From positions 14,942,001-15,006,000 of the forward strand of contig NW_024704752.1 in assembly GCF_018977255.1 (NCBI RefSeq): a stretch of DNA of 64,000 nucleotides, read 5' to 3'. Both the position numbers and the translations under genes were made by a program. Positions 15,729 through 62,914 of the stretch are shown here, one piece after another. The notes beneath the pieces were generated by a model. That model saw only the letters and a list, made by a program, of their open reading frames with translations, was not told where the DNA came from and made no database searches. This DNA comes from Callorhinchus milii (taxonomy: Eukaryota). The number at the start of each line of letters is the position of its first letter. Within the stretch, counting starts at the first letter, position 1.

Positions 15729-18700
15729 GTGAAGTGATTTCTTTTGCTTTTTTATAGAAAAGAAGATAAGCAGTTCCAACACTAAAAAGAATGATAAGTG
15801 TTAAATAATGCACAGACTATTATGTTAATTTTATGGTTATCTAACTCAAAATCTACACTTAGCTAAACAGAGCTATTAGAAAAGTCAACAAGTGATGTTG
15901 TTACAGTTGTATAAAACGCTGGTTAGACCTCATTTAGTGAATTGTGTGTAGTTTTCGTTACCAAAACTAAGGAAGGATATATTGACCTAAGAGAGTATGA
16001 AGCATTAATTTACTAGAATGATTCCTGGTGTCAAGGGCCTAAATTATGATGATAGGACGGAAAAGCATTGTATTCTCTCAAATTCAGGAGGTTGAGGGTT
16101 AATCTGATCGGAAAGTGAATAAAATTATAAAATAATTTGAAAGGCTGAATGGTGAGCAACTGTTTCCTCTAGCAAGAGAATTGAGGACTTGAGGTCATAG
16201 TCTTAAATTTGAGGTTAAACGCTTAAAAGTGAAATAAGGAAACATTTTTTCACACAACGGGTGGTAGTGTGAAAGTGTGAAATTCACTCCTCCAAAGGCC
16301 AATGGAGAAGGCGGAATCTATTGAAAAATTTGAAAGGCAAATAGATAAATACTTGATAGATAGGGGTCTCAAAGGATATGGAGAGAAGGCAGGGAAGTGG
16401 AATTAAGTTGTGAATCAGACATGATCTTGGAAAATGGTGGTACAGGCTCGCTGGGCCGAATGGCATACTCTTGTTTCTATGTTCCTAACAAGAAGCTACC
16501 ACTGGAACCACAAAGTGTAAAATTTCACGCACACACATCTTTGAAAAACGCCATATGTGAATATTTATGAATAACCAGAAATGGGGAGATGGAAACTACT
16601 TTGTATTTTCAATTGAATTTGACATTATTTGCCTCCAACAAAAAACTTACAGAGATTACAAAACAACAACAACAAATTACATTTGCATACGTACCAATCA
16701 TCACCAAGATAGGAATGTTTGGATGATCCAAAAGATATTTCAATATCTTTCCATGAAGCCTGTTGGAATAGACATAAACAATGTATACATTGAAATTACA
16801 AGCATAATCTGTGAAAATACAGTTTTAACAAAATAACCATTACAGGAAAATGATGAGCAAGCCAATTGTCTGACCAGTTTCAACAAGAGAAAAGTAATTT
16901 GAACCCATCAATTTGATAGCCTTATTTTGTAAGTACAGTAAAACTCACATAAATCCTATCAGTCGGGACCATTACAATTAACATGACTTACTCACAATCC
17001 AAGTCGCAGGCAAACTGTATACATGTAACTGTACAAGAATAACTGATATGTCGTAGAAAATCCGATTTAATCAATAATCTACATAGCGCCTGCGTAATTC
17101 AATGCAACAAGTAACAGCCCATGTGGTAGTTCATTACTGCAGCCAGTAAGTGCCCATACCGGTTTGATTCTGGCATTCCATTGACAAATGTTACCTTAGA
17201 GCCAATTCAGCTCAGTGTCGGTAGTCTAGTTTTTGAGCCCAGCTGGTCCACAGTACTCAAGGGCACTGCTGATGACAGCACAGTCAGCCTGTTTAATTGG
17301 CAGAACTTGGTAGGGCAGATTAGTCAATGGTGGCAGAGACACTTCCCACTTGTTAACCATGCAAACCAACATCCTAACAGGTAGAGTGGTCCTAGCTGGA
17401 CCACTCTACTTATTGGTACAGGGAAAATTTGCCAGGTCGTGCTCTCAATGGCAAGCTTTGTGGTTTTAGTTTGCGGTCAATGGACAGATGGTTTTAGCTT
17501 CTCAACTGAAGGATAGTAGCTCCAACAATGCAGCACAGCACTTGAACCCACAACCTCCTGACTTGGGAGGTGAGAGCTCTATCAAATGAGCCAGTCTATA
17601 CTGTGTTTATAAAATAAGCACAAGAGAAACATTTAGCAACTGCTAAATTGGTATGATTACAATAGCATTTCATATCTTAGAAAATATACCAGCACTTACT
17701 TTTGTAACTATTTCATCATTGAAGTAATACCATTCTCTTTCTGGTAAATGCCTTATATAAGCATAATAATGACCAAAGTATGCAGTGCCTCTGTGCACAA
17801 TCACAGAAAAAAGGTCATATATGGATTCATCCTGCAAATGAAAATGTAAAACTTAAAGTCATTGTAAAAATAACTCTTCTGTATAATACTCTCTTGGGTA
17901 AAGCAGGAGGTACTTTATTTTGCATCAATGCATGAGATCCATACCAAGCTAAATCTGGGTTAATGAATCCTAATATCTAGTTCAGAATCGATAAGTTTTA
18001 TTTTCCAAGATGACTGTCACCTTAAGTATAACACATGGCCATTATTGTTTAAAAATAAGCTCAAAGTCTTTTGCATTAGAAATTGTATCCAAGTTCAGAG
18101 GAAAGAAAACGTACCTCTTGGCCACGATGCTTGTTAGAAATCTTACATCTCTCAGGAAACGTCATAGAATCGCTGATTTTGACTGATTTCCTCAAATTTG
18201 TAGAATAGCCAAAGCGTTTTAGCTGAAAACATAGCACTTTTGGAAAATAAGCCATTCTGCACTGCTATTAAAGAGAAACAGTCTTGGTTAAATGAGTGAG
18301 TAAGCAGTCCTGTTTTTCTGTGAAATGCAAATGAAATATATCAATATTGACAATGCTGGAAAGTGTTATCTGGCATATTGTTTACTCTTGTGACACATAA
18401 ATGGCAGGATATGTTTTTTGTATAATAAAATAATATTTCCACTTTACATAGCATTGAAACATCTCAAAGTGCTTCACAGAGTTTTCTGTAAAGTGTAATG
18501 ACTGTGTAGTTGTAGGTGAATGTGACAGTCATTTTGCACATGGAAATACTATATCCTACAAACAGCCATGAAGTGAAAGACCAAAGTGAAAGTGGGAAAA
18601 TCTCCCTTCTTTTTTTGAAAAGTTGTCATTGGTTCTTTATCGTCCAGGCAAATTTGACCTCAGTAGCTACATAACTTTGGATATATATATATCACGACCA

Positions 18701-21700
18701 CAACTCCAGGTAATCTATTCCAGTAGCTGTCATCCCAAATCTCTGAGCTTCCCCATTATTTAACCACATCAATTCATTTGAGGAGAGATAAGCTGCTGCT
18801 TAACTTCTAGGCTTCCAACTGGTGGAACCACCAATCAATGCATAGGGATATATAATAATAATACTATTAATAATAATGCATTTGATTTAGCGAAAGTTGG
18901 CTTTTCTCCAGGACTTGATATCTGACAGACAATCTGCCAGGACAGAAGTGGTCAAGGAGTCAAGGGTGAAAGCAGAAAATAGAATTGGTCATCATACATG
19001 TGGAAATTCACCCTATTTCTGTAAATGACATCACCAGACAAGGACAGAGCATGAAGGTGGAGATGAGAGGGGAGGCGGTGGAGACGAATAAGAAGTCAAT
19101 CATATCGAAGACAGCAGAGAAATCAAGAAGAACGAGGAAATAGAGAGCCCTGGTCACAGTTGGACACAATGTAATTAGTAACTTTGACCAAGGCTGTTTC
19201 TGTGCTGTGGGCAACATGGAAACCAGATTGGAGAGGATCATACAGAGAATGGTAGGAGAGGAAAGTGTGAAGCTGGGAATCAATGCCTCATTTCAGGACT
19301 TTGGAGAGAAAAGGGGGTTTGGAAATGGGATTGTAGTTACAGAAAATGAATTGGTCAAAGAAAGGTTTTTTGAGGATGGGGGTAATAACGGCTGTTTTCA
19401 AGGGGTTGGGAATGGTGCCGGAAGAAAGAGGTTCACAATGTCACTATTCAGTGAAATTAAGCTTTAGAAATAAACCTGTCTACATGGGTCTGCATGCATG
19501 GTATGAAAAGAGTCAGTTAAACATAATGTTTTGACATAAGAACAGAATTCCTGGACTGATGCTGTAGTACCACACTCACCTGTTTTGTTTTTGTTTTCCA
19601 TTCACATTTGTCACAGTAGAATGCGTTTTCTTGGTCTAACTGATGATAACTAAAGAAAGCTTCAAATGATTTCTCCTGTGCAGATGAAAAATTAAAGTGA
19701 AAACAAAATCTGACAATGTTTGGGAACACTGCTTTTTATGGGATGTCGCTGTCTGCAAATTGGCCGCCTTATTCGCCAATAAATACAATTACTGCACTTT
19801 ATAGTACATCCTGTGTAGCACTTTGAGATGTTCTGGTAACATGAATGGTGGTAGATCAAATGCAAGGAAAAGCTTTGCTGTCAAGAAGCATTTTGGAGCA
19901 AATGGTAGTTTTCTACTTTCTTTCACACAACTGGAAAATCTAGGGAGTAATTTCAATCAAATTCAGTATTTGAATGTGTGTATATAATAGTTTAGAATTC
20001 AATTCTTTGGTGTTCTAGTTACCAAGCTGCCTCCCGAAAGAGTTATTTGGTTGATATTCTACTTTGTAAATTCACAAAGATTATAATCCTTGCATTTGAT
20101 ATAGAGCCTTATCAGTCTTCGAGGTGTCTCCAAGCGCTTCACAGAATATACTGTAAAGTGAATTGACTGTATATTTTCTGGGCAAAACTCAGCAGACAAT
20201 TGCACACAGCAGTGTCCTACAAACAGTCTTGCGACCAAATAATTTTTATTTATTTTGAAGGAATTATTACCCCTGGAAAAGCGATCCGCTAATTGACTAA
20301 CAACCAGGTTCCTACTTACTGCTGGGTAAACAAAGGCATGTGGAGAAAGGAAACTTGCCCAACATTTTGCCCTGCCAGGAATCGAACCCAGGGCCTCTCA
20401 CTTGTGAGGTCTCAGCTACAGGACACCAGATTAAACAGAATAAAAATTACAAATGAAATTGGTTGCTATGAATCAAAATATGAATGGAAAAAAAACACGT
20501 ACTATAGACTCATAAGGTGTATCACATGCAGGGTTATGAAGAGAAAGAGGGATATTCAACATTTCTTCTTTTTGAGTGAACTCCGATTCACATTCTGAAC
20601 ACACTGTATGCTCCTCAGTAGTAAAGCTAAAAATGTTAGTTTCTTCAACCTATAGAAAGATGAAATATAAAAGGTAAGCAAGTTTTTTTAATATCTGAAT
20701 TGTATTATTTATACTAGATCCAAAATGATAAGTAGCCACTTTCTTCCCAATTTAATAATCATATTGTAGTTTGACCACATTTGGTTAAACTATTTTGGTT
20801 AGACTACACTTGGGATACTGTGTGCAGTTCTGGTCCCCACATTATAGTACACATTATTGTATGTGGAAGTATAAAACAAACATAGTTAGAATCATCAGTT
20901 CAAATGGGACACTTAATAAGACTATTCAGAAATGGCTTGACAAAATACCTGAGGAACAAAATATCAAGTTCTTGATATCAAAATGTAGGTATTTTAGGAA
21001 GCTCAGATGTACTAAGAAAAAGTAACATCCATTCATGGGTAACATGGCTGTGTTATTTGTCGGGCTGTCCCATCACTGAAAACTATTTAGAAATTGTCGC
21101 TACAGAATGATTTGAACTGTAATAACATAATAATAATAATAAATAATAATAATCCTTGCTTTTGAAAAAGCACCTTTCATTAGGAGGATGTCCGAAAATG
21201 ATTCACAGGAATTCCTATGAAGTGGAGTGACTGCATTTGTAGGAAAAATCGGCAGCCAATTACGCACATCGATGTCCCACAAAAAGTCATCAAAAGAATG
21301 AATAATTTTATTTTATTTATTCGTTGGCGAGGACACCAAGAGAAACTCCTTTCTCTTTTTGAATAGTGCCATGGGATCTGTAACGTCCAACTGAACAGAC
21401 AGACTGGCCTTAGTTTAGCATCTCATCTGAAGGACGGCATCTCCAACAAAGCAACACCAACCCCCAACAGCTTCCTGGAGTGTCATCTTAGATTATGTGA
21501 GTCCAAGTCCTGATGTGGGGCTTTAACCCACAACCTTCTGACTCAGAGGCGAGAATGCTGCTAACTGAGCCAGGCTAACACAATTAACCAGCTAATTAGT
21601 GCTACCACCATTCATGCTCACAATATTTAGTTCACAAAGATTTACAAAAATGCACAGCACGGAACTCGCCACTTGACTCAACTAGTCTGTGTTGGTGTTT

Positions 21701-24585
21701 ATATGCCACACAAGTCTCCACCCATTTCTTTACTCCCTCCCATACCTTTCCATTCGCCTTCCCTCACATCAGGATCTAGATCCAGCTTGAATCCTCCTGG
21801 TGTCTACACTATCTGATTCAATCACCGCTTCAGGCAGTGAGTTCCACAATCTCACTACCCTCTGCATGAAGTAGTTCCTCCTACGTTTCTCTTTTTGATC
21901 CCTTGGTCACTATCTTATTTTTTAGTCCCTGGTTATGGACTCCCCAACCAGAGGAAACAGCCTATTTATGTTAACCTTACCGAACCCTGTTATCATTTTA
22001 AAAAACGTATTTGAGGTCCCTCCTTAAACATGTCTTCTCTGGCAAAAAAAGGCCCAATTATCCAAGTATCATCTTCACAAACCTATCCTGTACGCTTTCC
22101 ATCGCTGCTATATCCTTCCTACATTATGGATACCAGAATTGGACACAATACTTCAAATGTGGTCTAACCAAAGTTTTGTATAAATTCAACATCTCCTCAC
22201 CTCAGTTTCTGCAGGACTTACAGATCTATTTATACACTTTTGCTCTTCCTGGATCATATGCATGAGTGAACGAAAGAGTTCTTCAACATCCATCTGGAAT
22301 TCAACTTAAAATGAATGCAGACACTTAATAATATAATAATAATCCTTAAATTCGATACAGAGCTTTGTCATATCTTCTAGACATCTCAAAGCGCTTGACA
22401 GAATATAGTGATTTGACTGAAAACATTTTTTGTGGGTGAAACGCGGCAGCCATTGCGCACAGCAGAGTCCCACAAACAGCCATGAAGTGATTTGAAGGGA
22501 TCATTACCACCGGAAAAGTGATCGGCCAATCGACGAACAATCGGGTTCCTAATTACTGCTGAGTAAACAGAGGAGTAAGGAAACTTGCCCAACGTTTCAC
22601 CCTGCACAGGAATCGAACTCAAGTTCTCTCGCTTGCGAGGTGAGTGTTCTAACCACTAGACTCCCACTTTTATTAAAACAGCAATTAATCCAAAAAAAGG
22701 AAATCCTGTAAGAGTTTAATTCACAACAACAACTTGCATTTATCTAGTGCTCTTCATGTAAAACAACATCTTGAAACACTTCACATTGGTATGGCTGAAG
22801 TAAAAGAGAAATGGGGGGGGACCACATGAGCTATCAGATTTAGCAGATAATCTGGGAGTTTTAAACTTTATAAAGATTTATTTTAAAAGATAAAACAAAT
22901 ATATGAAACATTAGGCTTTTTATTATTCAGATTATTTTGACCTCTAATTCTCTCCCCTCCCCCCCTGAAAGATTTTGATTTGTTTTTCCTTCCACTTGAC
23001 AGTGAATAGAAATTCCACCTCGTTCTAGATTTAGACTATTTTCTTAGCAATTCAGTGTAAAAATAGATTCATTCAGTCTTCATTTTCAGAATACCTCACT
23101 CCCAATTTAGCTGAAACCCTCGTCCACACTTTCGTCACCTCCTGCCTTGACTATTCCTCTTCGACCGTGCTTACGGTCACCTCCTCCTTCCCCCTGTCTC
23201 GGCGTCAAGCTCTGCCACTGTTAAGCTCTCCGAGATGCTACCCCGCCTGAAGGGCGCTATATAGATGCAAGTTGTTGTTGAAATACAGAAATCTGTTCCT
23301 ACATTAAAGTTTCAGCTCTGAAATGTTAAGAAAATAGTCTAAATTTAGAGAAAGGCTTAACCACCTGCTCCAGGAACTGTATGATTTCAAATGTTCTGCA
23401 ATACCAATATGACATTCAGTTGACAGTAAAATTGTTCATGAAGGTAAGGAGGGAAAACATGAGACAGCACATAGATGTATGAATCTAATGATCCAAGGGT
23501 CTCTTTCTACACTTTCTAAAAGCTATTTACAGAATGGAAGAAGATTGGTTTCAGAAACAGTCATGAGTGTGCCTTCATAACTGAGAAAGTAGTGTAGGGT
23601 TATAGATGGATTTAATGATGGATGCAAATATCCTTAAAGGATAAAACAAAATACTTTCTTTTCTTACTCATTGTTAGATAAGAAACTGGTTTACCCAGAT
23701 TGTTTAAGGCTCATTGTTCAATAGGCAAGATCCAGCTATAAATAAGGTATCCATAGTTAGGTTTTTAGCATCAGTGTTCCAAGACGTTACCCTCGTGATA
23801 TAAATGCATGCTGTTGTTGTATACTCACCATTGATGTGGTGTAACTTTAAACACTGAACAAACTCTTCGACTCTCACGACTTCCTTTTTGGAATTCAAAT
23901 TTTGAAACACTTGATAGAGTTTGTACAAGACACTGTTATCCATTTCCTTCAGATTGCTTTTCCTTCCATACCTTTAACAACAAGGGTATAAAAGTTCTGA
24001 AATCCCATTTTATCAGACACACTGAAGTCCTATGCAATGCAGTGGATCAGAATGGGTAAATAAATAGATTTAATATTTTGGGTCGCATTTAACCTGAAGG
24101 AGTTACAAGTAAGTAATGCATGAAAGTTTTATCTAACGCTGTTATATTATTACCATTACTAATGGAGTTGCATTCCTGTTTTGGTACTTTAACAGATAAG
24201 AAACTGGTTTACCCAGATTGTTTAAGGCTCACCACCAGATCCCACCCAGCCCACACCACCCACTGCATCCAGTAGCAGTGAGGAAGAGCGGCATGAGGAA
24301 CCACTTCAGAAAAGGAATCCATATCCACCACAAACACGTGAATCAAAAATATTGGATATTTTTGAAGGAATGACACATTAAGTTGCACCCCTTTATATAT
24401 TAGATATTTGCAAAGGAAGTTAAAAACTATGGACTGAGGAATAGATTTGGTTGCTCAAAAACATTAGGTCAATAAAACTATAATTTACCTCATAATAATG
24501 TCTTTGTATTCTGGAATCATGTACAATGTCTGTAAAAGGACATTGACACTACAGTTTAGGCCTGTGTTGGTGAGTCCCACAAACT
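15729..24585 (-). CDS. USP18-like ubiquitin/UBL-specific cysteine protease (C19 family). Exons 24585-24489, 23971-23829, 22304-22222, 20649-20503, 19675-19580, 18264-18115, 17831-17700, 16759-16695, 15781-15729; termini uncertain (candidate ATG 25607, candidate last exon 15457-15288)
   Basis: In-phase GT-AG exons give Cys box [30 protein letters not shown], zinc-finger CSEC and [16 protein letters not shown], His box [29 protein letters not shown], and [10 protein letters not shown]. Compact catalytic-domain layout like USP18; orthology not established. Confidence 0.9.
15880..16490 (+). mobile_element. Decayed CR1 LINE 3' end
   Basis: ttgtataaaacgctggttagacctcatttag...tttactagaatgattcctgg...gaggtcatagtcttaaa...ctgggccgaatggc..tttctatgttc; same family as 40270-41550. 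Confidence 0.8.
19000..19430 (-). mobile_element. Decayed L2 RT fragment
   Basis: Minus-strand remnants [14 protein letters not shown] and [15 protein letters not shown]. Confidence 0.7.
20086..20420 (-). mobile_element. tRNA-derived SINE
   Basis: tRNA-like head (gggttcgattcctggc), body and (att) tail as in other copies. Confidence 0.75.
21128..21560 (-). mobile_element. tRNA-derived SINE, second head type (Deu-domain-like)
   Basis: Head agcctggctcagttagcagcattctcgcctctgagtcagaaggttgtggg, central ggagatgccgtccttcagatgag; related to 32541-33010. Confidence 0.7.
21640..22195 (-). mobile_element. CR1 LINE 3' fragment
   Basis: Reverse strand encodes [19 protein letters not shown]; CR1-type 3' UTR also seen at 55620-55850. 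Confidence 0.8.
22330..22665 (-). mobile_element. tRNA-derived SINE
   Basis: Head tagtggttagaacactcacctcgcaagcgagagaacttgagttcgattcctg; body shared with 34901-35230. Confidence 0.8.
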
Positions 24586-25899
24586 CTATGGAAAGAAATT
24601 GGACATCATTAACTTTGTTATAAAAGTTTTCACTACAGTACTTCCATCCTGTTGATTATATTAGCGAAAAGCTTATCAGTAGAAAATATGACCCCCCCCA
24701 TCCCTACTATAACTGCTAAAAGTATCCTCAAACATAACTTTCAATTTGTTTATATGATAAATATTTAAAAGTCAGTCAGGCCATCAACTAACCAATAGTG
24801 CAATTTTCATTATAAATTCTCCCTAAAATATTTAGTCTTCAAGTAAATAAAAAAGGCAAAATATCATAAAAGATAAAATATTAGCAAGTATTTTCCTTAC
24901 CCCCAATTTAATTAAGTGTCTCATACCCAACCCATTTACAACAGGAATCATTCTTGCTGTTCTTTACATCTTCTCTTTTGAATGGTAAGCTGACCAGAAC
25001 TGAATGAATGATCCAATGAAATAATCAGTCTAAATGACATTGTTGCTAAACATTGCAATGTTGATTGCATCTTATATTACTTGATTGTGCTGATTACACA
25101 TCACTACAAAATCATTGAAAGTAAAATAAATTGTGGAAATATCCTGGGTTTCTCTATGCTGCTTCAAAACCAACATGAATCCTCCTCCTATCCACCTCAC
25201 ACGCAGAATAATACTGAACATTTGAAGGAACAATTTCCTTTCCTCTCAGCTTCACCTCGAGGAGACACCAAAAAAGCAAATCAGAACAACTATAAATTTA
25301 CCATTCAAGAGATAGCATTGTAATAACATGGCATTCAGTTCTGGTCATCTTGCGTTCAAAAACATATGAAGTGGGTACAGAGAAGAGCAACAACATAGAT
25401 TCCTGGTGTAAATACATTGGACTATGAGACACAACAAGAGAAGTTACAATCTTGAGGAATTTTCTTGGTAGGCGATACCAACTGTTGTTAAGCTGTGTGG
25501 CAGATATTATTTGAGTACATTTCAAATGACCATTCATACACATATTATCATTTCATTTACCATCCTTTAGTGCAGGAGTGGAGTCTTGTTGTGAGGGTTT
25601 TTTCCATGGCTGAGAAATGAAATTGAAAACCGTTAGTCATTTGCAGCTTTTGAACCATTTCAAACAATCAGAGAAAACGTTCTGTGTCAGAAGAACATTA
25701 TCACATCCACATGACGCTACGCTTATGCTTGATTATGAGAGTGGGATTGAGACTTGGCACTCAAAATAGACTGCAATATCAGGAAAAGCAGATTCACTAT
25801 CACAGTACAAGGTTTAACAACATTATTTCCACACATATTTAGTATCCAGGTTCATAATTTTACCTGAGCAAGACTGAACTGGAAGACGATCGAGAGCTC

Positions 25900-27925
25900 A
25901 GTACAAGATTAGAGAGAGAGAAAAAGCAACATACACAGAGTTAGAGATGCATAGGGAAAGGCACACTCACTGAACTGTTAGAGAGAGGGAGACATAAACA
26001 TGCAGAGATCTATCAAGTGCGTCACATACTCCCTCTCTGCTTTCAAATCTGACTTAAAACCTATCTTATTTACTCTGCTCTAAGTCACTTCCCTCCCTGT
26101 CACCCAGCTTAAGCTAACACTACATCTCTGTAAAGTGATTTGATACATTTTGCTTCATGAACGGTACTACAGCCTTGCAAGCCATCACAGGAAATATATA
26201 CTTAATGATAATAATATTTTAAAAGATGAGACTTGGGTTTTACATAGATAATCTTAAAAGTGGGAGAGCAAGTTGAAAACCTGGAAAACAAATCTAATGG
26301 ATCCAAGGTTTTGTACACACATCAAGACCCATATCAAGATTTTGAACTCGTATACTGTAAGCTGACACTCCAATGCAATGCTGGTGATGCGATCCAGAGC
26401 GGGGAGTATGTGTGTAACACTTTGTGTGAGCGTAATACAATGTATGTGTGCACAATACTGTGTGCGTGTGTGTGTGTGTGTGTGTGCATATATCCAAGTG
26501 CCCATCCACCCGAAGTTGATGCCTACACAAATTTCCATTCCTCACTCCACCACAGCATAGAGAACTCTTTCAGATAGCTAGACCTGGGCATCAATTGCCT
26601 TCTTCTGTACTGTAAAATTCTATGATTCTACAAAAGGATTTGTCCTGTAATGTTCTAAGAAGGCCTTCTAATATTAAACTTTTGTTGCATTCTCACAGTA
26701 GTTACGGAGTTTGAATTACGAGGACTACCACACTCCTGGGCAACCAGTTTGGTACCAAAGTCATCTTGTGTGGAATGGTCAGAGTCACAATCATCCTGCT
26801 GCTTCCGTGACCGAGGATTGAAAACTGTGAATAATTGATAACTGTAAATGGTTTTCAGATGTTGAAAGTGTGGATGAAAATGATGTCTGAAAATGGTTTT
26901 CAGATGTTGAAAGTGTGGATCAAAAGTATTCATTCCCTGGTGTCAGTTATGGGAACGATAACGCGGATCAAGCTGAAAAACAAATCACAGATAAAAGCTT
27001 TTTTCGTTGTGCAGTTTTGCAACCTTTTCTTTTAGAACAGTACAAGCCGAGTCCAATATTATTATTCAATCATAGTTTTAGATAATGCATCCATGGTTGC
27101 AAGGTAAAAGAGTTATGAAATCCAAAAAGATCACTCCATCTAAGATCTAATCCAGAAAATTACAAAATTAGAGAGTTAGAGATGCACCTAGAAAGATACA
27201 GAGTTTAAGACACTGAGAGAGATACCGAAACATACAAACACTTAGAGATCCATTATTCTCAATTTTCTTATCGGCAATGAGACACTCCCAATTCTTGTGT
27301 ATATAGGACTTCATACCATCCCTCTGAGATATTGCAAGTTTGTCAGAAGGTTGTGGGTTCAAGCCCCACTTTGGAACTTTGAACTCACAGAGTCTAAGAT
27401 GACACTCCAATGCAGTGCTGGGATTGTGAGCTGCAGCGAGAGGTATGTGTGTAACACGATGTGTGTGTGCAACATTCTGTGTGTGTGTGCTGCCCACCAT
27501 AAGTTGATGTCCACCCAAATGTCCATTCCAAGCTACATCACTGCATAGAGCGCTTTCAGACAACTAGAACAACAACAACATAATTACATTTGTAAAGTGC
27601 CTTTCACGTCGGGAGGACGTCCCAAGGCGCTGAACAGTCAGGGATCAGGACCTGAGCGTGGGAGCAGGGTTGGGATGAGGGAGGGCAGAGGGGGTAGGAG
27701 GGCGGCTGAAGGCACACTCAAAAACAGGCACAATGGGCCTGAATAGCTCCTTCTCTATTGTAAAATGCTATGATTCTACAAAGGGATATATTTGATAGAC
27801 ATTTTTAAGAATACTGATTATCAAATAATGTAAAACAACACTGACGCATATTGTCCTGTAATGTTCTAATAAAGCATTCTAATATTAAACGTTTGATCCA
27901 TTCTCACTGTACTTATTGAGTTTAG
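25900..27925 (+). repeat. Diverged local duplication (~25900-26720 vs ~27165-27925)
   Basis: Shared agagttagagatgca, SINE-like head, gtgtgtaacac.., atgattctacaaa, tgtcctgtaatgttcta, ttctaatattaaac...cattctcac in the same order. Confidence 0.7.
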
Positions 27926-29237
27926 CATAAGGCCAGAGGCAAGTCTTACATTGCTGACCCTGTATGATCTACGAGAACTGCCATTGTTCTGGGCAACCAA
28001 TCCTTTCATCGGGACTTTAAACTCATGCATTATTGGAGATGCCATCCTTCAAATGAAACATTAAACTGAGGTCCCATCGACCTGTTAGAAATCCCATGAC
28101 ACCAATCAAATAGAAAAGAGGCTTTTTCCCAGTATCCTGGCCGACAATCTCCCAGATAAAATTAATAATTGATTTCATGGCTGTTTGTAGGTCATTGATG
28201 CGCACAATTGGAATGTCTAGTTCACCTCCAAATCCAGTCACTCCACTTCACAGTGAATCCTGTGAAGCGCTTTGGGACATCCTTCTGACCTGAAAGGCAC
28301 TATACCCAATGCGAGGATTATTAATTATTATTAATTTGTTGTTCGTTTAGATTGCACATTCACCTCAAAAATCAAAATGCATTGATGTTGCAATATTGTT
28401 TGAACATAAAACCACCAGAACATTAAGAAGCAAGATTTACCGTTTTTAGTACTTCCAAGCTGGATACATTCCTCCTAGCTTTCCTATTTTTCCCCAATTA
28501 ATTCAGAATGGGTTAAGAATGGACCAAATTCTGGCTGATCTCACCATGAGATCTCTGGTAGAGAGAATGGACCTTAATTTAACATCCTAATCATTTTTTG
28601 GTATTCTGACCATTCGTCCTCAAAACACACAGTCTTCACACACATACTTTACAATATATCCTGAGATGAAAAGCACTATAATAAATATAAGAATTGTCAT
28701 TGTCTGCAATTCTCATTCCTTTACTTAAATAGATAAATGGTGCATTTTCAATTAAAATGGCAAACTCCAATGAAGAAGGGAAACTGCAAACGAAGGTGAA
28801 ATATTCCGAGAACTTTGCTGATGGGAGGATAACTTAAATTAGCACAAAACACGCAAAATTCACGGGAAAACGATTCAGAAATCCAACCAGCAAGAGCACA
28901 GGCATTCCCTCTCCTGGTCTCTACAGAAATCAATCCAAACGCTAATCTTTTAACAACAAAACGTATAACAAAGTGGAGAATTCTCACACAGGTTTAAGTT
29001 CAAAACATTTGTACCTGGGATGAATTTCGATTCCTGACAAATGCCTCGTGTAGTGTCAGATGATTGCACAGTGGAGTCTGTGATGTATCTTGAAACATGT
29101 TGTTGTGAATATTTCTTCTGTTTGACATATTTTGCAGAGAGACGTTTGTGTTCTTACTTCTTCAGTGAAGGCAATGTTAAGGAAATTGCTTTGCCAGCTT
29201 CAGCACATCTCGCCATTGTTTAAACTTGGATAATACA

Positions 29238-29249
29238 GAAAGTGAAACT
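29238..29249 (-). promoter_or_regulatory. ISRE-like element at the presumed 5' end of the USP18-like gene
   Basis: GAAAGTGAAACT fits GAAANNGAAACT; a minus-strand donor (cccag|gtacaa) at ~29014 suggests a non-coding first exon just downstream. Confidence 0.6.
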
Positions 29250-30246: not shown

Positions 30247-30263
30247 GAAATAAAAGTGAAACT
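30247..30263 (+). promoter_or_regulatory. ISRE/IRF-E element upstream of the UBL gene
   Basis: GAAATAAAAGTGAAACT, ~90 bp 5' of the ATG at 30355. Confidence 0.7.
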
Positions 30264-30354
30264 AAATATAATTTCTTTATGTCAGATTCTGAAGTCCATA
30301 ATGTAACAGTGCCGGCTAACTGCAACTTCTTTAAAATCTCCTCAAGACACCACA

Positions 30355-33859: not shown

Positions 33860-33869
33860 GGGGCTTTCC
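33860..33869 (+). promoter_or_regulatory. NF-kB consensus-like site before the RBR start codon (also 41986-41995, 46800-46809)
   Basis: GGGGCTTTCC matches GGGRNYYYCC. Presence in all copies is weak evidence because the copies are recent. Confidence 0.35.
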
Positions 33870-33914
33870 ATGAGCTGTTGCTACTTAATTTTGTTCTGGT
33901 TTTCGATCGACAAG

Positions 33915-51572: not shown

Positions 51573-51584
51573 GAAACTGAAACT
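51573..51584 (+). promoter_or_regulatory. ISRE upstream of the second USP gene
   Basis: GAAACTGAAACT, a consensus match 50 bp 5' of the ATG at 51634. Confidence 0.75.
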
Positions 51585-51633: not shown

Positions 51634-54600
51634 ATGGCGATCGTTGAAAGGTTTTCTTTAAAAAATATTTGTGGTACTAAAAGGTTCGGCACCACCATGC
51701 TGTGGTTCAATGGTATTGTCGCTGTTGGATGCATATACTTTTTGTTTTGGCGGTGGAAAGGTGAGGCTAGAATCTACTTAAAAGTTACTGACTGGTAGGA
51801 ACTCATTCAGTTTCCTTTCTATTAATGCTGGGAAATGTGATGACTGAATTGCTGAACATTTTTTAAATTCGTCCAGATATAGAAAGTTTCATTCTGAAAC
51901 TCTTTGAAATGTGCTCCCGGTTAAATATACCACAAGTATTTGCTTGTGCAATTTGTGACCAGCTGCCTTCTTTAATCCACCTATGGCTGGAATCGAACAT
52001 GTAACACCCTCTCTCTCTCTCTGGAGGGACATGTCCATAGAACAATAGAAACAACAACAAAAAATTTAGCTTATTGCCTTTTACCCTGGGAGGACGTCCC
52101 AAGGACTCGAGAGGGTTGGGGGCCAAGGGGGTGGGGATGAATAGGGGTCGGGAAGACCGAAGGCACGGTCAAAGAGGAAGGTCTTGAGATGGACCTTGAA
52201 GGAGGCAAGGGAATGGGCAAGGCAAAGGGATTAGTAATAATAGTAACAATCCCTGCATTTGATATAGCGCCTTAATACATCGTTGACACATCTCAAAGTG
52301 TTTCACATAATATGTTGCAAAGTGAATTGACTGTGTTTTACCCACAGTAATTCCGAAACATTGCCCGCTTTTGCCTTTACCTCTACTCTCAAGCCCCCGA
52401 GATACTCACCCATTTAAAACATCCATCCTTGATTATGTCAAAGTTCTGTTTGCCAGACTCCGCAGTTCTTCTCTATACAAGCTGTAAACTATCCAGAACT
52501 CTACAGCCCATGTCCTCTCCAGCACCAGGCTCCTGTCGCCCCCGTTCTAAATCTATTTTCACATATTTTACAGGAGCAATTAAACGAATGTGGATGAAAA
52601 TAAAGGATAGGAATTCTTTCAAAATACAAACACCAGGTAATGTGGAAATAGCTTAATCATTTTGGTGTGCCATGTAAGCTTGAGGTTCTACTGAAACCTC
52701 ATAGAAATAATGGAAATCCTCTTCATAAAAATGCCTGTTATTTGCCAATTTGTCATTCGGATGAAATATACTAAACCCCGGTTGGCTGGACCAATGGGCT
52801 GAGGTCCGGACCAGTGAGCTGGAATTTGCGGTATTTGTCGGTATTGTAATTGTTTGAATCCTGCGAGCTGAATCTGCAGGATTCAAACTGAGTCAGAGTG
52901 GATATCCCGTCCCACTAAGTAAGCACTGTGAGGCAGGGGCGCATGCTAATAGAGGCAAGCTGGGGAAATTTTTCTGTGAACATTTCTGGATCGGGCCCGG
53001 TCTGGCAAGCTATGAATTCTGGACACTAGGAGTCTGGTCAACTGGGGGTTTGCTGTAATTTAAAACTATTCACAAACATCCACATAATGTCTCCCAGGCA
53101 GGGCAAAACATTAGGCAAGTTTCCTTACTCCACACGCCTTTATACCAAGTAAGTAGGAACCTGGTTGTTAGTCGATTGGCGGATCGCTTTTCCTGGGGTT
53201 AATAATCCCTTAAAGAAAGGAAAACTTACAAAAATAATAATAATGTGGTCACTCAATCCACGACTGTTTGTGGGACACTGCTGTGAGCAATTGGCTGCCA
53301 CGTTTCACCCACAAAATATACAGTTAATTCACTTTACAGTATATTCTGCGAAGCGCTTTGAGACGTCTCGAAGACGTGATAAGGCTGTATATCAAATGCA
53401 AGGATTATTATTATTATTATAGTGAGGAGCTAGCATCAACAAACACTTGTTGGGACAAATAGCTTAATTCCATCCTATATATTGTGATAATTACATTAAC
53501 CCACTAAATATGAACAATGGTAACATTTCATCTTCATGCTTTGACTGTTAGATAGACCTATGCTTCATCCTGAATACCACAATAAATATTGGAAAAGAAC
53601 AAGTATACTTCAGTAATATCAATGCAAATATTTGCAAATAATACAAACTAATAATAAATTATTCTACAGCTAGTTGAAAAAAAACTTCAAGCAATTAAAT
53701 CCATGTTCTTATAATTATTGTGCCTAAATGTTACTGTATTCTTTATAACTTTCAACATGAATAGTAATCAATATGTTGCAGCATCACTGCAGATTTAACA
53801 TGGCAAATGTATGCTGCCATAAGGCTTATTGGATCTCATCAAGACTTATTTTATTTATTTTTTAAAAACAGTTGGATTGATTAATCAAGGAGCCACTTGT
53901 TATTTGAACACACTGCTTCAAATATTATACATGACCCCAGAATTTAAAAATACCATTTGCAAGTAAGTAATAAAATTATTTCGCAGAATTAAAACAATAT
54001 GATTTGTTGAATCTGTAACAACTTTATAGAATCATTAGGGTAGACTTTCTATTGGTTGCTAAAGTCTATAACAATGGGAGTACACGCTTGTTATGCAATG
54101 GTCTTTCCTCATTTTAATGTGTGCATGCCAACAACATGAGTAACTTTAAGTTCAGAAGAAATTATGTTGTAATTGGTTAGATTACTATATCTTTATCTCC
54201 AAAACTCGTGTTGGATTCCTATCCAAATTCTATTTTGAAAAGTGTGTTGGTGGAATTGTTGGTTTTGTCTCTGTGTGTGCATGTGCATTCATTGTGTGTG
54301 GCAATGAGTGGGTGTAGACTTGTACATTGTGTGTGCGCATGTGTGTGGACGTGTGCATTTGTGGGCTTGTGCATGAGTCAGTGGGGATGTGCTTGTGGAT
54401 GCCTGGTGCATTTCCTCTCATCCCCTTAATACATCGAATAACTTACCAATGCTCACACTGCCTGAGTTCAAAAGTGAAGAATGGTCACCTGTGTGAGCTG
54501 TTTGGGAATCATGTCCAATGTGAGGCCTTTCCTTCAGGAAAGGAAGGGAGAAATCCCTCATATCAATATTTTCATAAAGCTTTCATTCAGATAAAGGGGT

Positions 54601-57600
54601 TCCTCATATGTGTTCTGATCCCCATCCGATCAGCTGCCACATATCACTGTGTGATCTTGCCAGGATTTCATGTTGTACACAGTGCTTTATGCTCCAGTGG
54701 GCAGACTTGGTCTTGGTCCTGTTTCCTTCCACCCCCACCCCATCCCATGAAGGCAAATAAACATTTTAGTTTGACTCTGCTGCATCACGACTTGAACGGC
54801 TAAGATGAGTGCCGCTTACAAATATACTGGACATACAGCTGTATTTTTCTCATGCTTGTTAAAGTTAACAAAGATTTTGCAGCATTTGGACCAGAACCCT
54901 TATTGCTTCAATTCCCCATTTCTGAAAGGACAAAGGTTTAGGGTTGCAATGAGGAATTTCAGGACAAACACAAGGAAATATTTCTTTATCAAGAAGCTAA
55001 TTAATGAGTGTAACAGATTACCAGGAGCAGTAATTGAGACCAGCATACTGGACTCATTTTAAAAACAATCAATGCAGACAGTATTATGATGTTCTTAAAT
55101 TGTAACCAGAATTATTATTCCTCAATGTTAATATTCTGTTTTTTATGTTCCCAGTTTAGAAACGGATAACCAGATTATATGTCAGTTAAAAATCATGTTT
55201 GAGAAATTGCAAAAGAGCAAAAAGGCTGTAGAAACACACAAACTGACCACAAGCTTACAACTGGATGGTAAGGAATAGGTGTATTTTGATATCATTATGA
55301 TACAAGAAGATTTTTTTTAAAAAGGCAGTTCAACATCACAATGGTTGTTTTCATTTGTCATTTATGATTTAGCTTTGTGTAATTAACGAAATAACATTGT
55401 ACCATTATCTTCATCATCAGTATTAAGACAACAAGATATAGCAGATTTTTTCCTATTTCTGATGCATGAAGTGAACACTTATATGGATCAGGATCAAACT
55501 ATTTTGAAGGTAAATAAAATTAATAGAACAAAGGTAATGAGAAAGTCATATATTTTCACTCCAATACTTTGAGGGATAAGAAAACATACTGTATGAATGA
55601 CTTGTAACAAAAATTTACAAAGAACGTACAGCATGGAAACAAGCTACTCAGCCCAAACAGTCCATGTCAGTGTTTATACTCAAACAATTTTCCACCTATT
55701 CCTTACTCCCTCCCATACCTTTCTTTCCCCCTCTCCTTCATGTGCAGGTCTAACTTCCTCTTGAATGCATCTATTAACTGATTGTTAACTACCACTTCAG
55801 GTAGCGAGTTCCACAGTCTTCCTATTCTCTACGTAAAGTAGTTATGCCTAAACCTAGATATCAGGTTTAATCCCCAGCTGTCCTTCCGATGCCTGACAAA
55901 GCAAAGTTTCCTCCATCTCTGTCACATTGCCCATGTCCGACCATACCTCACATCCAACGTAGCCGAAACTCTCATCCGCAGATTCCATTGAAATCTCTGG
56001 AATTTCCTTGTGTAGGTGGGATGCAAGGAACTCTGTTTGGTTTGGATACTCTTAAGCATGGTGGTGCTTGATTATATCTGATACATAAAGGGTTTCTGCA
56101 TCCGGTGAACCAAAACAAAACCTGCAGCAATGTTTAATGGGTCAACAGCCTATATTGTAATCCATCCATGTGGAAGTTTTGCCTGTTTCTTATCTTGAAA
56201 TGCCTAACGCATGTTCCTCTAACAATTTTTTTAATCCAAGCAGTAAATCTAGAGATTGAATGGCTCAGGTTACGAAATCCGGGAATCTAAAGATGCATAA
56301 AGGCAGCTCAATTAATAGTTGTTTATTTGTATAATGTTTTACAATACAAGTAGTAGCAGAAGAACACAGAAAAGAATAACAAAGGTTATTCTACACCCTC
56401 CGATGTAAGCATGCTACTTGGATGTTTGACTAATTACTGACTCCACTTCCGATGTTACAAATCATTCCATCAATACTAAACATCAACAGGCAGTTCGATT
56501 TTGAGACTGGGAACATCAAAGCTCAAAAGAAAGACCTTTCTGTGGTTTGTTCATGGTTCCAATAGGTTCTGCAGATGGGATCATAATACTGTCCTTATTT
56601 GCAATGTTTTAGAATAAAACTGTGTGATTATCATGGAAGATGCTGAAGATTTAACATTCTTGGATACAAATTGAGCATTCCACACACCATCTTTGGCAAT
56701 GTCGGCTTCTAATTGGATTTCCCTTCATAATCAAGTAGCACCTTTATATCCCTCTTTGGTTTCGAAATTCAATAAAACATTCTTCAGCAGATCCGCTGTT
56801 TTAGAAATTCACTAATCATAAGAAATGACGTAATTTATACCCAACCATCTCTTACTTAATACTTAATCTCTTTTCTGTTGATACCTGAAAGAATGTTAAA
56901 ACCGTAGCTTTAATGTTGAAGCCTGTATTGTATTTGTGTTTGGTGTGTATCTCCTTTCTCTTTTCACTAGTCTTCTCACCCTTCCCGGACAATAATAATC
57001 CAGTTGCATAATATACAATCTGGTGTCATGGTTAGGTGTACACTGAAGTGCAGCAGAGACGTTCCACTCAATGTTCCACTACCCCAGAAGTGGAATATTA
57101 CTAACCTGTACTCGGTAAATGATCCCTCCCTTCCCCTTCCTAAACAATGTGGTTAACATTAGGAACTCAGCAAGGCTAAGCATCATGTTACTTGGATGTT
57201 TGACTAATTATTGATTCCGCTTCCAATGTTACAAATCGGCATTATATCAATATTAAACCATATATTCTACCATCCTGTGATGTTGCACATTTGTATGTTG
57301 CATAAAACTGCATTTTCTTCATTTTGCTGATTTCACTACATGCTTATTGTGTTCTCGCTGAAAAACATGGGGAATGACAATATTCTATCAACTATATTTT
57401 TAGTTGTTTGTACAGCTTAAATTTTTATCTTTGCTGGTTTCAATGCATTGTTGAACTCTTTTTTGTGTGATACCAGGTTTAGTTAACATTTATTTCTGTA
57501 CAACTATGGCATGATAAGCAAATACCTTGAACCATATTTTATACACCACATGTGCACGCAATAGGATATTTTGATATGAAAAGCAGATCAATCATGAGTT

Positions 57601-60600
57601 GAAATCAAATGGTCAGTAACAAAAAAGCAACAATTTGATTGAATATTTTCAAACCTAATGGTAGGGTATTCTTTAAAACAGAGAAAACTGGAACTGCACA
57701 ACAGGTTGATCAGATGGTTGGAATCTGATGAAGTACATACATTTTAATGATTTACTTTCTTAGAATTGTGCCAACTACTGATATACCATCTTTTCCAATT
57801 TGGATAGACTAAGGATAGTTTGTTCTTTTTAGTGTTTGACTTGCACATTCAGTCATTGAAAAAAGGTTCCTATATACACTCACCAATAAATGTCCTTCAG
57901 TTTTATCAGATCACAATTGGTCATGAAATGAAATGTCAAGAATGCAATGCTAATTATAAGAAGGAATATCCGTGGCTGACTATCCCTTTACCCATTTGTT
58001 CATCTTCTAATAAATTTAAACACTTGGTAAGTTTAAAAAAACAGGGTAAGTATAAATATTATATTCAAGTGACTTATTATCGTCACATAATATTGATAAT
58101 AATAATGATAAAGGTCTCCTTCAGTGCGATGTCTGGTATAACTAATAATAATTGTTAATAATAATGATAACATTCATAATAATAATACTTTTTGCATTTA
58201 ATATAATGCCTCATACCCATGGAATTCTTACATTGTTCCTAAGATTTGGTAATAATAGTAATTCAGTTTTAAATTAATTCAGATTCTACAATATTTACCG
58301 TTTAGGAACATCAGGTACTTTCAATTTTTTATTTGGTAACTGAGCCACTATACCTTTGGCTATTACATTTAAAAAAATCTTCTCCCAATTTAAAATCTGT
58401 TATGTACCTTTTTCACTCCCGCCGCCTCTGGAGTTCGAAGTTGTTGCTTCATGTCTCAGATTGTGAGCTCCCAGGTGAGGCTGTCGCTTTAGCAGGAGTG
58501 CTGCATTATTTTAGGTATTGTTCTTCAGAAGGGATGTTATTAACTCCTAGCAAATGATTTAAGGTTTTTTTTTGTAAATGACAATCTACTGAATCTACTG
58601 AAAAACTAAAAGATACAATGATAGGCATAGCTTGGCATTGAAAGCGCTGTCTGGCAAGTTTGTCCAGCGAGGAAAGACCAAATTGATTAATCCATAGGTA
58701 GCTACTTGTTTAGCATCATGCCATGGAACATTTCTATGGCATGTTACTGATTTTGTTACTTTCTCTCTCAAGGAAATTGCTTTAGATGAGTTTCTGAAAT
58801 GGGACATTCTGAATGGTGACAATCAATGTTATTGTGACATTTGTAAAGAAGTGACTGATACATCCTCAGTAAGTATGGATTGCAATATTAGTAAAATATG
58901 TCGATAAATTTGTAAATCAAAGGCATATTTCATTTCAGTAAAATATACACAGAAATATTAAAGTATCTTGCAGTTCTCCCAGATCACAATATTTAGTACA
59001 TATCCAGCCCCACTTGGAGGATTCCGTGTTGCTCTGCTATTCCTTCTACAATAGGGATTGGAGAGAGTATAATAAAAGTCCATCAAATTAATATTTTATA
59101 TGGAATTAGATATCTGAATTATGAAAAGTGAATGCCAAACTAGGATTGTTTACACGGGAGGAAAAATGATAAATGAAAAATGATCTTTTTAAAGTTTTAT
59201 AGACTCTAAAGTTTTGTAAAAACTGGCCTCCAAACAACAGTTTTGATGTACAAATTGAACATCTAGGATAAACTATTATATTCAGATATGGACAAAAGAA
59301 GCTTAGAGTTTTTCTGGAAGTTCAGGATAATCCTGGTGTAGAAGGACTATTTCACTGCAGAAACCAAAAATGTAACTCTTATCTGCCATTATTCCTTTGA
59401 AGGCTTTTTTCATCAACTTATTCTTGTATTTTGCAGAGATACCATATCAAAGAGCTGCCCCAAATTCTCACAGTGCAGCTACTAAGATTTCACTTTGACA
59501 CAACAAACAGATGTTATCAAAAGTTTGATGACTGTATTGAGATCCCACTGACACTGATGTTTGAGGAATCGAGGGTAAGATATTTATTATGGTGTTTATT
59601 ACACATTTTACTTCTACGTAATAGAAAAGCAAAATGCATAATGTTTGTTGATTTGTTAATAGATATTTAGAAAGGGAAAGAAAATCCTGAGATAGAACTT
59701 TCTGTTCAAAGTAGAAGAAATAAAGCTGATGGAGTTATAAAACTATTAACAAAAAATCCTTAGTTTTCTATGGAATATGAAGACGAAGATCAGGACCAAT
59801 GAAGCAGATGGGTCTTGGAGTGGAAGGTTCATTTTAATGTAGATTTTCAATCAGTTTTGGAACAAGAAACATAAACAGAGTGAAGGGGCAGTAATTAGAT
59901 ATAGGGGTTTGTTAATTTGATTGCTTTACAGATATTTTTAATATTCATACAGGACAATCCCAATGAATGGTGTCTAAGTTCAAGAATCAATAAGGTAAGT
60001 TAGAATCCAGTACAGTAATTATCCAGTATTGGAGGCATCTCTGGGCAATGATGGGATGGAATATTTTGTTTTATTTGATTTCAATGCTACACATTTTACT
60101 TTTATAGGATCAATTGCATTGATTCCCATATGATGATTTGAGCTCACGTGCTAAGCCAACAGTGCATTACTTAGGCATTGCTGTCCTTTGATTGAGCCAT
60201 TCAACTGAGGTCACATCTGCTTATCCTGGACTCTCATTTAAGCCTTTCATCTGGTTCCTTACCAAGGCTGTTTTTCTTTATTTCCTCCCCCTCTAACTCA
60301 CTCCAATGCAACTGAAACCCTCGCCAGTGTTGTAGTCTACAACAACAATAACAACAACAACTTGGATTTATATAGCGCCCTCCATGCCGGACGGCGTCTC
60401 AGAGCGCTTCACAGTAACAGATCCTGGGGCCGAGCCGGGGGGGGGGGGGGGGGGGGGGGGGAGGAAAGTGACCAAAGGCACGGTCAAAAAGAAAGGTCTT
60501 CAGCAGAGACCTGAAAATAGGAAGCGAGGGGCGAGACGAAGGGAGTGAGGAAGGCAGTTCCAGAGCCTCGAGGCATAGTGGCTGACGGCACGGCCGCTGA

Positions 60601-62914
60601 GGGTGGAGCGGAGGACTTGGGGGACGAGGAGGAGGCCAGACCCGGAGAAACAAAGGCAACGGGCACTGTTTTGAGGTGAGATGAGGTCAGAGAGGTCGGG
60701 CGGTGCAGAGGAGTGCAGGGACTTGAATACAAGGGTGAGGATCTTGAAGTCGATCCTCTCTGGGATAGGCAGCCAGCGCAGTCTGGCAAGAACTGGGGTG
60801 ATCGGGGAGCGGAGTTTGGTGCGGGTGAGAATGCGGGCGGCAGAGTTTTGAATAATCTGGATTTTATGGATGGCAGTGGAGGGGAGACCTAAATTCCAGT
60901 CTAAACTCTGGAGTTCATTTCTCTAATGCCTTCCTTACCGGCCTTCGTAAATCAACCCTCCAACAAGCTCCAGATCATCCAGAATTTTGTATTCTGTACC
61001 ATGGCTCAGAGGCCCATCAACACCACCCTCACCAAGCTTCACTGGCTTCTTACTTGCAGCAGAATAACTATAGGATACTCATTTTATTTATTTCCACCCC
61101 ACCCCCCCCCCCCCCCCCCCCCCAGGTCCTTGTTTCACTCTGCTTCTGATCTCCTGTGATCTGCTAATTCAAATCTGTTCCACATTTCCCATCCCGCTAT
61201 TAGTGGTTTAAGCTTTCAGCCATTTTGACTCTGTTTTCTGGGTCTCTATTCCTAAACCTCCCTCCCCACTTTCAAAGCCTTTCTAAGAACCTACCATTTT
61301 CACTAGGTTTTCGGTTACCCTCCTCCTGCCTCCCCCCTTAACTCCCATCATACCCGCTGTAACGCCATCTCTGTGAAGGACGACAACATTTTTTACTATG
61401 TGAAAGGCATTGCATAAGTGCAAGTTTTTGTTGAACCAAATCCTGAAAAAGAACAAACTTCCTGGTGGGAAAAACATTTTAAAGCTACGGTTTTCAAATG
61501 TTGCTTACAACATCCCTTGTCCTCTACTCCATAATTGTCAGCAATTCTTTCAGTCAATATGCCCTGAATCTCTGCAACTCCTTGCCTCAATCCTTCTTTC
61601 TTGTCCCCTCTGCACATCTTCAAATCACACATGAAAACTTTCCTCTTCAGCCATGCCATCAGTCACCTTCTCCCCACCCGATCTCGCTGTCAAACCATGC
61701 ACTGTTAAGCTCCCAGGCATTACTTACGTAAAGGGCACTATATAACTACAAGTTGTTGTTGAAGTGTCGTTTTTATTTCTGTTAAATTAAGAATGGAATT
61801 TTTTTTATGAGTCAAGAAACAGTCATAGTTAACATCCTTGAGGGGAAAAAAACACACTTGGGATAAAATTTACAAGGTTTGAAGACTTGAAAATAAATCT
61901 TAAACAAGAATGGTCCACACCTTCATATTATCAAATTAAAGTCAACTGAATTATTTCCGCAAATACCTCACCATCAAGTATTCTCTACTGTTTACTATTC
62001 TCCAGTGTTGCTTTCCTCTCCGATAAGAATTTCATTCTCCTGAGATCTCAAATAACAATTCCTTTACTCAACAACAGGAAAGCCCAGATGAGTCATTTTC
62101 CACCCTATTAGGAACAGTCCAACATCCCCATCAAGAATCAAAAGTAGAAGCAGCTGCTAAAGAAAAGCTGAAGTCGACAAAGGTACATTTGTTTTCATTT
62201 TCTTTTGGCCAGTGCTACGATTCCCAAAAGGCATCTGGCACCTCATCCAAATGCCCATTATTCGATGTTAGTATATTTAGTGAGTGTATGTGTCATCTGA
62301 CTTGCCGACCATCACTGTTAGAGCTGATTCTATTCTTTTCACAGCCACCCATGCACGTTTTTCAGCAGGTGCCATTTAATAGCTATTAGGAAGCTGCAAA
62401 CCCAGGCTGATGTTTTACCTCCATTGCCACATGGAAAACAATATATATATATTGTTATATATATTCAATCCATTGCATTTATTTAAAGGGTATAACATGT
62501 TGTTTTTAAACTTGAGCACAAAGTGTTTTTGTGGAAATTGATGTAATTAATTTTTCTATCTTGGTTAGTTTGACAAAATATACAGCAATCATTTGCCACT
62601 TCAAATGAATGCACATTAGAATATCACCAAAGCATTTTTAAAATGTGATTTGTATGCATTATAGTGTGAATCTCAATTGCATTACCAACTTAAAATTATG
62701 TAAAAAGAATCTTTGAATTAAGTTCAGAATTGATGATAACAGTAATTAAATATACAAAATGATTTAGCTGTTTTATTTCTCGCTTGCTTTTTAGGAGTTT
62801 GAACTATTTGCAGCATGCTATCACGAAGGAGTGTATGGATATGGTCACTATCATGCTGATATTAAATCAACTGCTGATGTCTGGTACAGTTTTAATGATC
62901 AAACTGTTGCTAAG
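51634..62914 (+). CDS. Second USP-family protease with N-terminal hydrophobic segment, 3'-incomplete. Exons 51634-51760, 52574-52636, 53872-53962, 55155-55267, 55421-55509, 57901-58026, 58773-58868, 59437-59574, 59953-59994, 62078-62182, 62795-62914
   Basis: Cys box [25 protein letters not shown] (USP7/40/47-type), [13 protein letters not shown] and [19 protein letters not shown], His box [24 protein letters not shown]. All exons in phase; the small exons 59953 and 62078 are less certain. Confidence 0.9.
53090..53420 (+). mobile_element. tRNA-derived SINE
   Basis: Same family body and atcaaatgcaagg(att)n tail. Confidence 0.8.
60340..60890 (-). mobile_element. L2 LINE 3' fragment
   Basis: [14 protein letters not shown]...[15 protein letters not shown] on the reverse strand; poly-C tract and (TTG)n tail. 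Confidence 0.85.
60950..61760 (+). mobile_element. Decayed L2 3' fragments
   Basis: NKLQIIQN...LTKLHWL; two tails ending aagggcactata...aagttgttgttg. Confidence 0.65.

Follow-up and report, generated by a model that had tools for sequence, protein, structure and literature searches.

The vertebrate ubiquitin-like modifiers known so far are few in number, and none is known to be encoded beside its own E3 ligase and protease. A stretch of 64,000 nucleotides from the elephant shark Callorhinchus milii (G000:C11:14,942,001-15,006,000, on the contig labelled C11; hereafter the window) raises the question of whether such an arrangement exists. The original prediction, made from the letters alone, described it as a self-contained, operon-like and interferon-inducible conjugation cluster comprising a novel ubiquitin-like protein (UBL), three RING-between-RING (RBR) E3 ligases and two ubiquitin-specific proteases (USPs). 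The answer that we favour, at about even chances for its parts taken jointly, is that the cluster combines a dedicated interferon-induced UBL modifier with its writers and its processing and erasing proteases, borrows its E1 and E2 enzymes, and forms a module that runs parallel to ISGylation in jawed vertebrates.

The exon models agreed with the predicted gene order and strands, namely USP-A on the minus strand followed by UBL1, RBR1, RBR2, RBR3 and USP-B on the plus strand. The statement that every protein gene here belongs to the ubiquitin pathway also held: inspected by eye, the list of open reading frames for 15.7-63 kb contained, besides the cluster genes, only repeat fragments and zero further host genes. 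The cluster exceeds the window on both sides, and ~94 kb span two UBL genes, three RBR genes of the ARIT clade and three USP genes, with a RhoGEF-SH3 gene sitting between UBL2 and USP-A. The cluster genes are as follows, in window coordinates unless stated otherwise.

UBL2, L024:8252-8632, 11.4 kb left of the window, minus strand: 77% identical to UBL1, directly 3' of the RhoGEF-SH3 gene.
USP-A, 15729..29128, minus strand: short USP18/USP47-family protease with 11 candidate exons and an open 3' end.
UBL1, 30355..30763 (exons 30355-30499 and 30612-30763), plus strand: 98 aa, one ubiquitin fold, zgc:194655 family, Pfam ubiquitin.
RBR1 (ARIT clade), 33915..36701, plus strand: 4 exons, 273 aa, intact, GT-AG introns.
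RBR2 (ARIT clade), 42041..45287, plus strand: 4 exons, GT-AG introns, with a one-base frameshift in exon 3 of the assembly.
RBR3 (ARIT clade), 46855..49314, plus strand: 4 exons, 274 aa, intact, GT-AG introns.
USP-B, 51634..62914 and continuing beyond the window, plus strand: USP47/USP18-family protease with 11 candidate exons in one frame, chosen by eye.
USP-C, L027 and L026, about 72,800-82,430 on the window scale, minus strand: third USP, placed at about +72.8-82.1 kb and facing USP-B.

The genomic translation of UBL1 was 100% identical to NP_001280071.1. Its fold was assigned by Pfam (PF00240) and by Foldseek, whose best matches were ubiquitin at 31-34% identity (predicted local distance difference test, pLDDT, of the model 66), and the Atlas agreed. 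Four sequencing runs were compared with positions 29330-49329; X1 and X2 were DNA-like, and X5 and X6, from different studies, were taken as RNA solely from their GT-AG joints, no searched run being recorded as RNA. The UBL1 intron was removed by splicing in two of the four runs (X5 and X6), and an RNA-like contig extended to 30294. The spliced transcript contig belonging to UBL1 itself, together with the separate promoter motifs described below, does not support the description of the cluster as operon-like.

UBL1 terminates in LRLPGG plus a 9-residue tail and UBL2 in LRLPGG plus 4 residues. As predicted, this single-domain LRLPGG protein is distinct from ISG15, which lies on contig C8. Homologues (zgc:194655) were found in sharks, rays and otophysan teleosts; the shark and teleost proteins showed 62-66% identity and the same C-terminus. 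The Atlas held two chordate UBL clusters of 70 and 117 members, and the larger one (~92 aa) bears the name of the RBR, an indirect sign that the two share gene loci in annotations. A profile search with the UBL alignment listed 150 matches, nearly all of them polyubiquitins, from which five new single-domain rows were chosen by eye. Among 12 distinct family genes ranging from sharks to teleosts, 11 retained the diglycine followed by a variable tail (1 to 32 residues), and the position of ubiquitin Arg74 was occupied by Pro in 11 and by Ala in the remaining one. Relative to ubiquitin, arginines 42 and 72 were retained and a 6-residue insertion followed strand 2. A diglycine that stays constant while the tail varies in length and sequence resembles the pattern expected of a processed modifier. 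Two database proteins related to this family are worth recording: P0277 has a UBL1-like start and a UBL2-like end, attributable to gene conversion or a cDNA chimera, and P0256, an unnamed protein of 238 aa with tandem repeats like the UBL family, one of them ending LRLRGG, is a possible multi-domain branch.

Three RBR genes were present as claimed, but they do not represent three enzyme types: their last exons shared 139, 129 and 129 of 153 residues pairwise (84-91%), and by this sequence similarity they are recent tandem copies. A query with the last exon identified 211 of 213 candidates as relatives, and these came from sharks, teleosts, amphibians, turtles and platypus. The window RBRs, which are RBR-only and have no transmembrane tail, grouped in a last-exon tree of 30 rows with teleost, reptile and mammal ARITs, an interferon-induced, RBR-only clade of ~265 aa named in 2025 (PMC12234341, cited throughout from the accessible part of its text); turtle and echidna sequences in the alignment of that paper matched relatives found by our search. 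Its accessible text contains no shark sequence, is silent on the UBL family and on linkage, and makes no remark on the degenerate RING1 or the absent His. The RING1-IBR-RING2 architecture was indicated by a Pfam IBR match and by a sawshark ARIT model (pLDDT 85) that matched Parkin, ARIH1/2, HOIL-1 and HOIP. Every one of the 50 aligned ARITs, and likewise each of the three RBRs of the window, carried the catalytic Cys of RING2; the active-site pattern was C-K-N/Y/T/S. Exon 3 of RBR2 measures 173 nt in the assembly, which produces the frameshift; RBR2 transcripts are nevertheless in frame, because the X5 and X6 contigs, in which exon 2 is joined to exon 3, hold one extra base in exon 3. A pseudogene was rejected on account of these RNA-like contigs without the frameshift. 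Depth at the frameshift was zero in X1 and X2, so an assembly error and an allele are indistinguishable there. Elsewhere in the genome, G000:C14:13,856,000-13,867,000 (L004, L005) holds two near-identical, distant ARIT-like RBR genes with 39% identity and a C-S-N active-site loop.

The proteases were modelled from the following parts.

USP-A candidate exons 1-6, minus strand: 29128-29015, 25609-25561, 24585-24489 (Cys box), 23971-23829, 22304-22222 and 20649-20503.
USP-A candidate exons 7-11, minus strand: 19675-19580, 18264-18115, 17831-17700 (His box), 16759-16695 and 15781-15729.
USP-B Cys box, 53872-53962, plus strand.
USP-B His box, 62795-62914, plus strand.
USP-B probable further exon, near +64720, plus strand, to the right of the window.

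Eight of the 11 USP-A exons were translated singly and all were open, with the phase of the lengths summed by hand. USP-A gave a Pfam UCH match, and its His exon had USP47 and USP18 as best PDB matches, scoring 43.8 bits to the former versus 36.5 to the latter over this single short exon; the His-box exon of USP-B also matched USP47 and USP18. USP-C carries a long charged (acidic/basic) C-terminal exon. The catalytic Cys, His and Asn/Asp residues were found in all three cluster USPs. Assignment of a window USP as plain USP18, USP47 or USP40 was rejected, since better candidates lie on C5, C17 and C6, and the cluster USPs are therefore probably extra genes. The C5 gene (39.3 bits to USP18 versus 36.4 to USP47, again over a single short exon) is a probable USP18 by its sequence; the C17 and C6 genes are candidates for USP47 and USP40 by their motifs. 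The USP-A His and zinc-finger exons shared 49-50% identity with the C5 gene. The cluster USPs probably belong to the "USP18-like/USP47-like" clade of PMC12234341. Two further observations concern this family. The candidate first exon of USP-B (51634-51760, plus strand) encodes a hydrophobic stretch between basic residues, resembling a membrane anchor, and USP-B may be membrane-bound if this stretch is real; several tandem USP-family matches on the small contigs G000:C82, C98, C655 and C1073 suggest another expanded USP array.

The UBL could alternatively be a non-covalent regulator, acting as an allosteric activator of ARIT or as a stabiliser of a USP18-like interferon brake, with ARIT and the USPs acting on ubiquitin. 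Allosteric precedents are phospho-ubiquitin for Parkin and NEDD8 for ARIH1; RBR ligases often require a bound ubiquitin-like protein, and such complexes were among the ARIT fold matches. This explanation would account for linkage and co-regulation without E1 and E2 enzymes, and it is consistent with a Pro74 that may impede E1 charging and with one orthologue that has no second Gly. We nevertheless regard it as a minority possibility, given that the diglycine persists in 11 of 12 genes despite a freely varying tail and that three proteases with intact catalytic residues have been retained alongside the UBL.

The interferon-stimulated response elements (ISREs) that had been placed at the 5' ends of the UBL and both USPs were found at these positions, listed below.

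ISRE-like element of USP-A, 29237..29249, plus strand: about 110-120 bases upstream of the start codon, the sole exact RGAAANNGAAACT match in the window.
ISRE-like core of UBL1, 30253..30263, plus strand: lies 92-102 bases before the start codon and precedes a TATA-like stretch.
ISRE-like element of USP-B, 51572..51584, plus strand: 50-60 bases upstream of the candidate start codon.

The ISRE core AAANNGAAACT had three exact matches in the window, and all three lay 50-121 bases upstream of the USP-A, UBL1 and USP-B start codons. Their number was within chance (3 versus 1.81 +/- 1.35 expected, with 27 of 100 shuffles reaching 3), as illustrated also by the longer ISRE consensus (5 observed versus 4.46 expected). 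ISRE placement is thus informative, whereas ISRE number alone is not. The chance of this placement, calculated by hand for 6 genes with 150 bases each, was ~3 in a million, a figure that makes the placement look stronger than it is, the pattern having been chosen post hoc. Outside the window, USP-C had two overlapping ISRE cores (2 versus 0.25 expected); UBL2 had no AAANNGAAACT match, but had GAAACCGAAA at 79-88 bases upstream, where its promoter block is the one also present at UBL1. Overall, each of the two UBL and three USP genes had an ISRE-like motif upstream. A scan for gamma-activated sites (GAS) gave 33 matches versus 25.5 expected.

Linkage in other species was read indirectly, from database accessions and published coordinates, and it recurs, pairwise, in teleosts. 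In Salminus brasiliensis, the UBL (XP_072542895.1) and an ARIT (XP_072542896.1) have RefSeq accessions that follow directly on one another, and both lie on a single 42.6-Mb chromosome. In Atlantic salmon, the distance from a USP18-like gene (chr.7:23.856 Mb) is 157 kb to ARIT.1 and 238 kb to ARIT.2, all three genes falling within 254 kb of chr.7; the accessible text of PMC12234341 gives these coordinates with no comment on linkage. The same source reports log2 inductions by interferon-gamma of 4.9 for USP18-like, 13.5 for ARIT.1 and 11.6 for ARIT.2, with infectious salmon anaemia virus inducing all three too. The predicted interferon inducibility has therefore been observed for salmon ARIT and its linked USP18-like gene; in C. 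milii it is represented by the motifs only.

Species with both a UBL and an ARIT in our sets were only Salminus and Xyrauchen; the 10 RBR clusters in one set, and 8 of 10 in another, had no species overlap with the UBL set and were uninformative on linkage. The Xyrauchen UBL and two ARITs were found on different chromosomes, and these ARITs form a separate cypriniform subclade, distinct from that of the Salminus gene. These data bear on a further explanation, namely that interferon-stimulated genes of no common family have long been neighbours, their number swollen by recent tandem duplication, and are functionally uncoupled. It would be in line with RBRs that are recent copies, with a RhoGEF gene that breaks up the cluster, with the unlinked Xyrauchen copies and with a linkage that across species amounts to two species and to pairs only. 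That three unrelated families of one pathway adjoin, and that pairwise linkage appears in two teleost lineages, makes this explanation improbable in our estimation.

Two-domain LRLRGG genes for ISG15 itself were located on C8 at 9.85-9.87 Mb (two of about four copies read); the region G000:C8:9,849,000-9,875,000 (L057-L059, L067) holds about four diverged tandem ISG15-like two-domain genes. ARIT was intact in Pelodiscus and alligator, whose lineages are reported to be without ISG15 (PMC5381560, in its accessible part), and is reported lost in humans, who retain ISG15 (PMC12234341). Because ARIT is present in reported ISG15-less lineages and absent in ISG15-keeping humans, its presence does not track ISG15. 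These observations are relevant to a reading in which the UBL is a true modifier served by general machinery (UBA7 or UBA1/UBA6, and HERC/TRIM E3s), and in which ubiquitin or ISG15 is the substrate of ARIT and the USPs, these genes being neighbours through shared interferon regulation. The accessible text of PMC12234341 indeed proposes ARIT as a possible ISG15 E3 and reports UBA7 induction in the same salmon cells as ARIT and USP18-like; the 49-50% identity of USP-A exons to the probable USP18 points the same way. We consider this reading unlikely, as ARIT persists where ISG15 is reported lost, a probable USP18 is already present on C5, and the UBL seems to neighbour ARIT in both a holocephalan and a characin.

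If the cluster is instead a dedicated modifier with its own writers and erasers, interferon signalling would switch on the UBL and USP promoters via the observed ISREs. The UBL precursor, with its tail after the diglycine, would be trimmed by a cluster USP and activated by a general E1 and an E2 encoded elsewhere; like ubiquitin and ISG15, the UBL retains Arg72. ARIT would load the UBL on the RING2 Cys and pass it to host or viral proteins, from which the cluster USPs would strip it. Specificity would likely reside in the Pro replacing Arg74, the 6-residue insertion, a RING1 from which one zinc site is missing, and an active site of the form Cys-Lys-Asn/Tyr. Conjugation of the UBL, and specificity of the enzymes for it over ubiquitin or ISG15, are what we infer from these features. 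A broader proposal, in which the RBR ligase and the USP18-like proteases are specific for the LRLPGG modifier, is held more tentatively and at somewhat less than even chances as a whole: in addition to ISG15, jawed vertebrates would have possessed a second interferon-induced tagging pathway whose writer, tag and eraser genes form a single linked cluster, surviving in sharks and fish and probably in reptiles and many mammals, able to replace a lost ISG15, and lost toward humans.

Several observations weigh against this dedicated system. The description of the cluster as self-contained is not supported: none of 16 E1-type and none of 54 E2 matches in the genome, each a lower-bound search, lay on the cluster contig. 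Motif scans revealed no ISRE or GAS match near the RBR starts. The Triplophysa rosa family member (1 of 12) ends in GE instead of GG. Canonical RING1 domains follow a two-zinc pattern; in ARIT RING1 only a C-G-H...C...C zinc set was conserved, the first site having no conserved Cys pair. At the residue two after the RING2 Cys, His occurred in none of 142 matched ARITs (153 examined, 11 unmatched). With half of the RING1 zinc ligands and the usual His absent, the catalytic activity of ARIT is predicted but not certain. In addition to the separate chromosomes in Xyrauchen, no UBL or USP match was present in the 100 kb examined near the C14 ARIT-like genes. The range of ARIT reaches amphibians, turtles and mammals, whereas the UBL was found only in fish; low-reach searches yielded no tetrapod UBL, 10 of 10 named clusters being from cartilaginous or otophysan fish. 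No report of UBL-family induction was found in the literature searched: UBL-family genes are unnamed in the accessible main text of a preprint on zebrafish interferon-stimulated genes (bioRxiv 10.1101/693333), and the virus-induced trout "polyubiquitin-like" and "RNF144A-A" genes in the accessible part of PMC11258392, being of uncheckable identity, were not used as evidence.

The surroundings of the cluster were also surveyed. On the minus strand, 1-11,300 of the window holds the NGEF-like RhoGEF-SH3 gene with its 5' part and a promoter rich in GC, and a 331-base repeat in 2.6 copies lies at 8888-9735. Further neighbours, from scans of 138 and 125 selected frames, were a potassium channel, an EF-hand gene, a G-protein-coupled receptor, a BRICHOS gene and Mo25, a set that resembles the human 2q37 block.

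If true, the proposed system would add a branch to the antiviral defences of fish and other vertebrates, would be the first to include an RBR ligase devoted to a tag other than ubiquitin, would supply a substrate for ARIT and USP18-like, which are strongly induced orphan genes, and would bear on how lineages without ISG15 cope. The ARIT ligases, and probably the USPs, belong to clades that had received a name, though no function, in 2025 (PMC12234341, accessible part). The UBL belongs to the zgc:194655 or "polyubiquitin-like" database family, which is known by automatic annotation alone, and the literature searched, which leaves out most subscription papers, yielded no publication that describes this UBL or its linked cluster.

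Among known systems, that of ISG15 (ISG15, UBA7, UBE2L6, HERC5/6 and USP18) is similar in its interferon-type promoters, its ubiquitin-fold precursor with a diglycine and tail, and its proteases of the USP18/USP47 group. In contrast to the two tandem domains and LRLRGG terminus of ISG15, the cluster UBL has one domain of 98 aa and ends LRLPGG; an RBR replaces the HECT ligase, and the parts are linked, whereas ISG15 lies apart on C8 and the probable USP18 on C5. FAT10/UBD is another cytokine-induced vertebrate modifier that borrows its E1, with two domains, no processing tail and no linked ligase or protease. The borrowing of E1 and the cytokine link would, as proposed here, be shared with the cluster UBL, which differs in being single-domain, tailed and linked to ligase and protease genes. 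The USP18-like or "USP47-like" clade of PMC12234341 likewise consists of short USPs nearest USP47 and USP18, with an induced salmon gene near ARIT; the C. milii cluster differs in holding three diverged copies.

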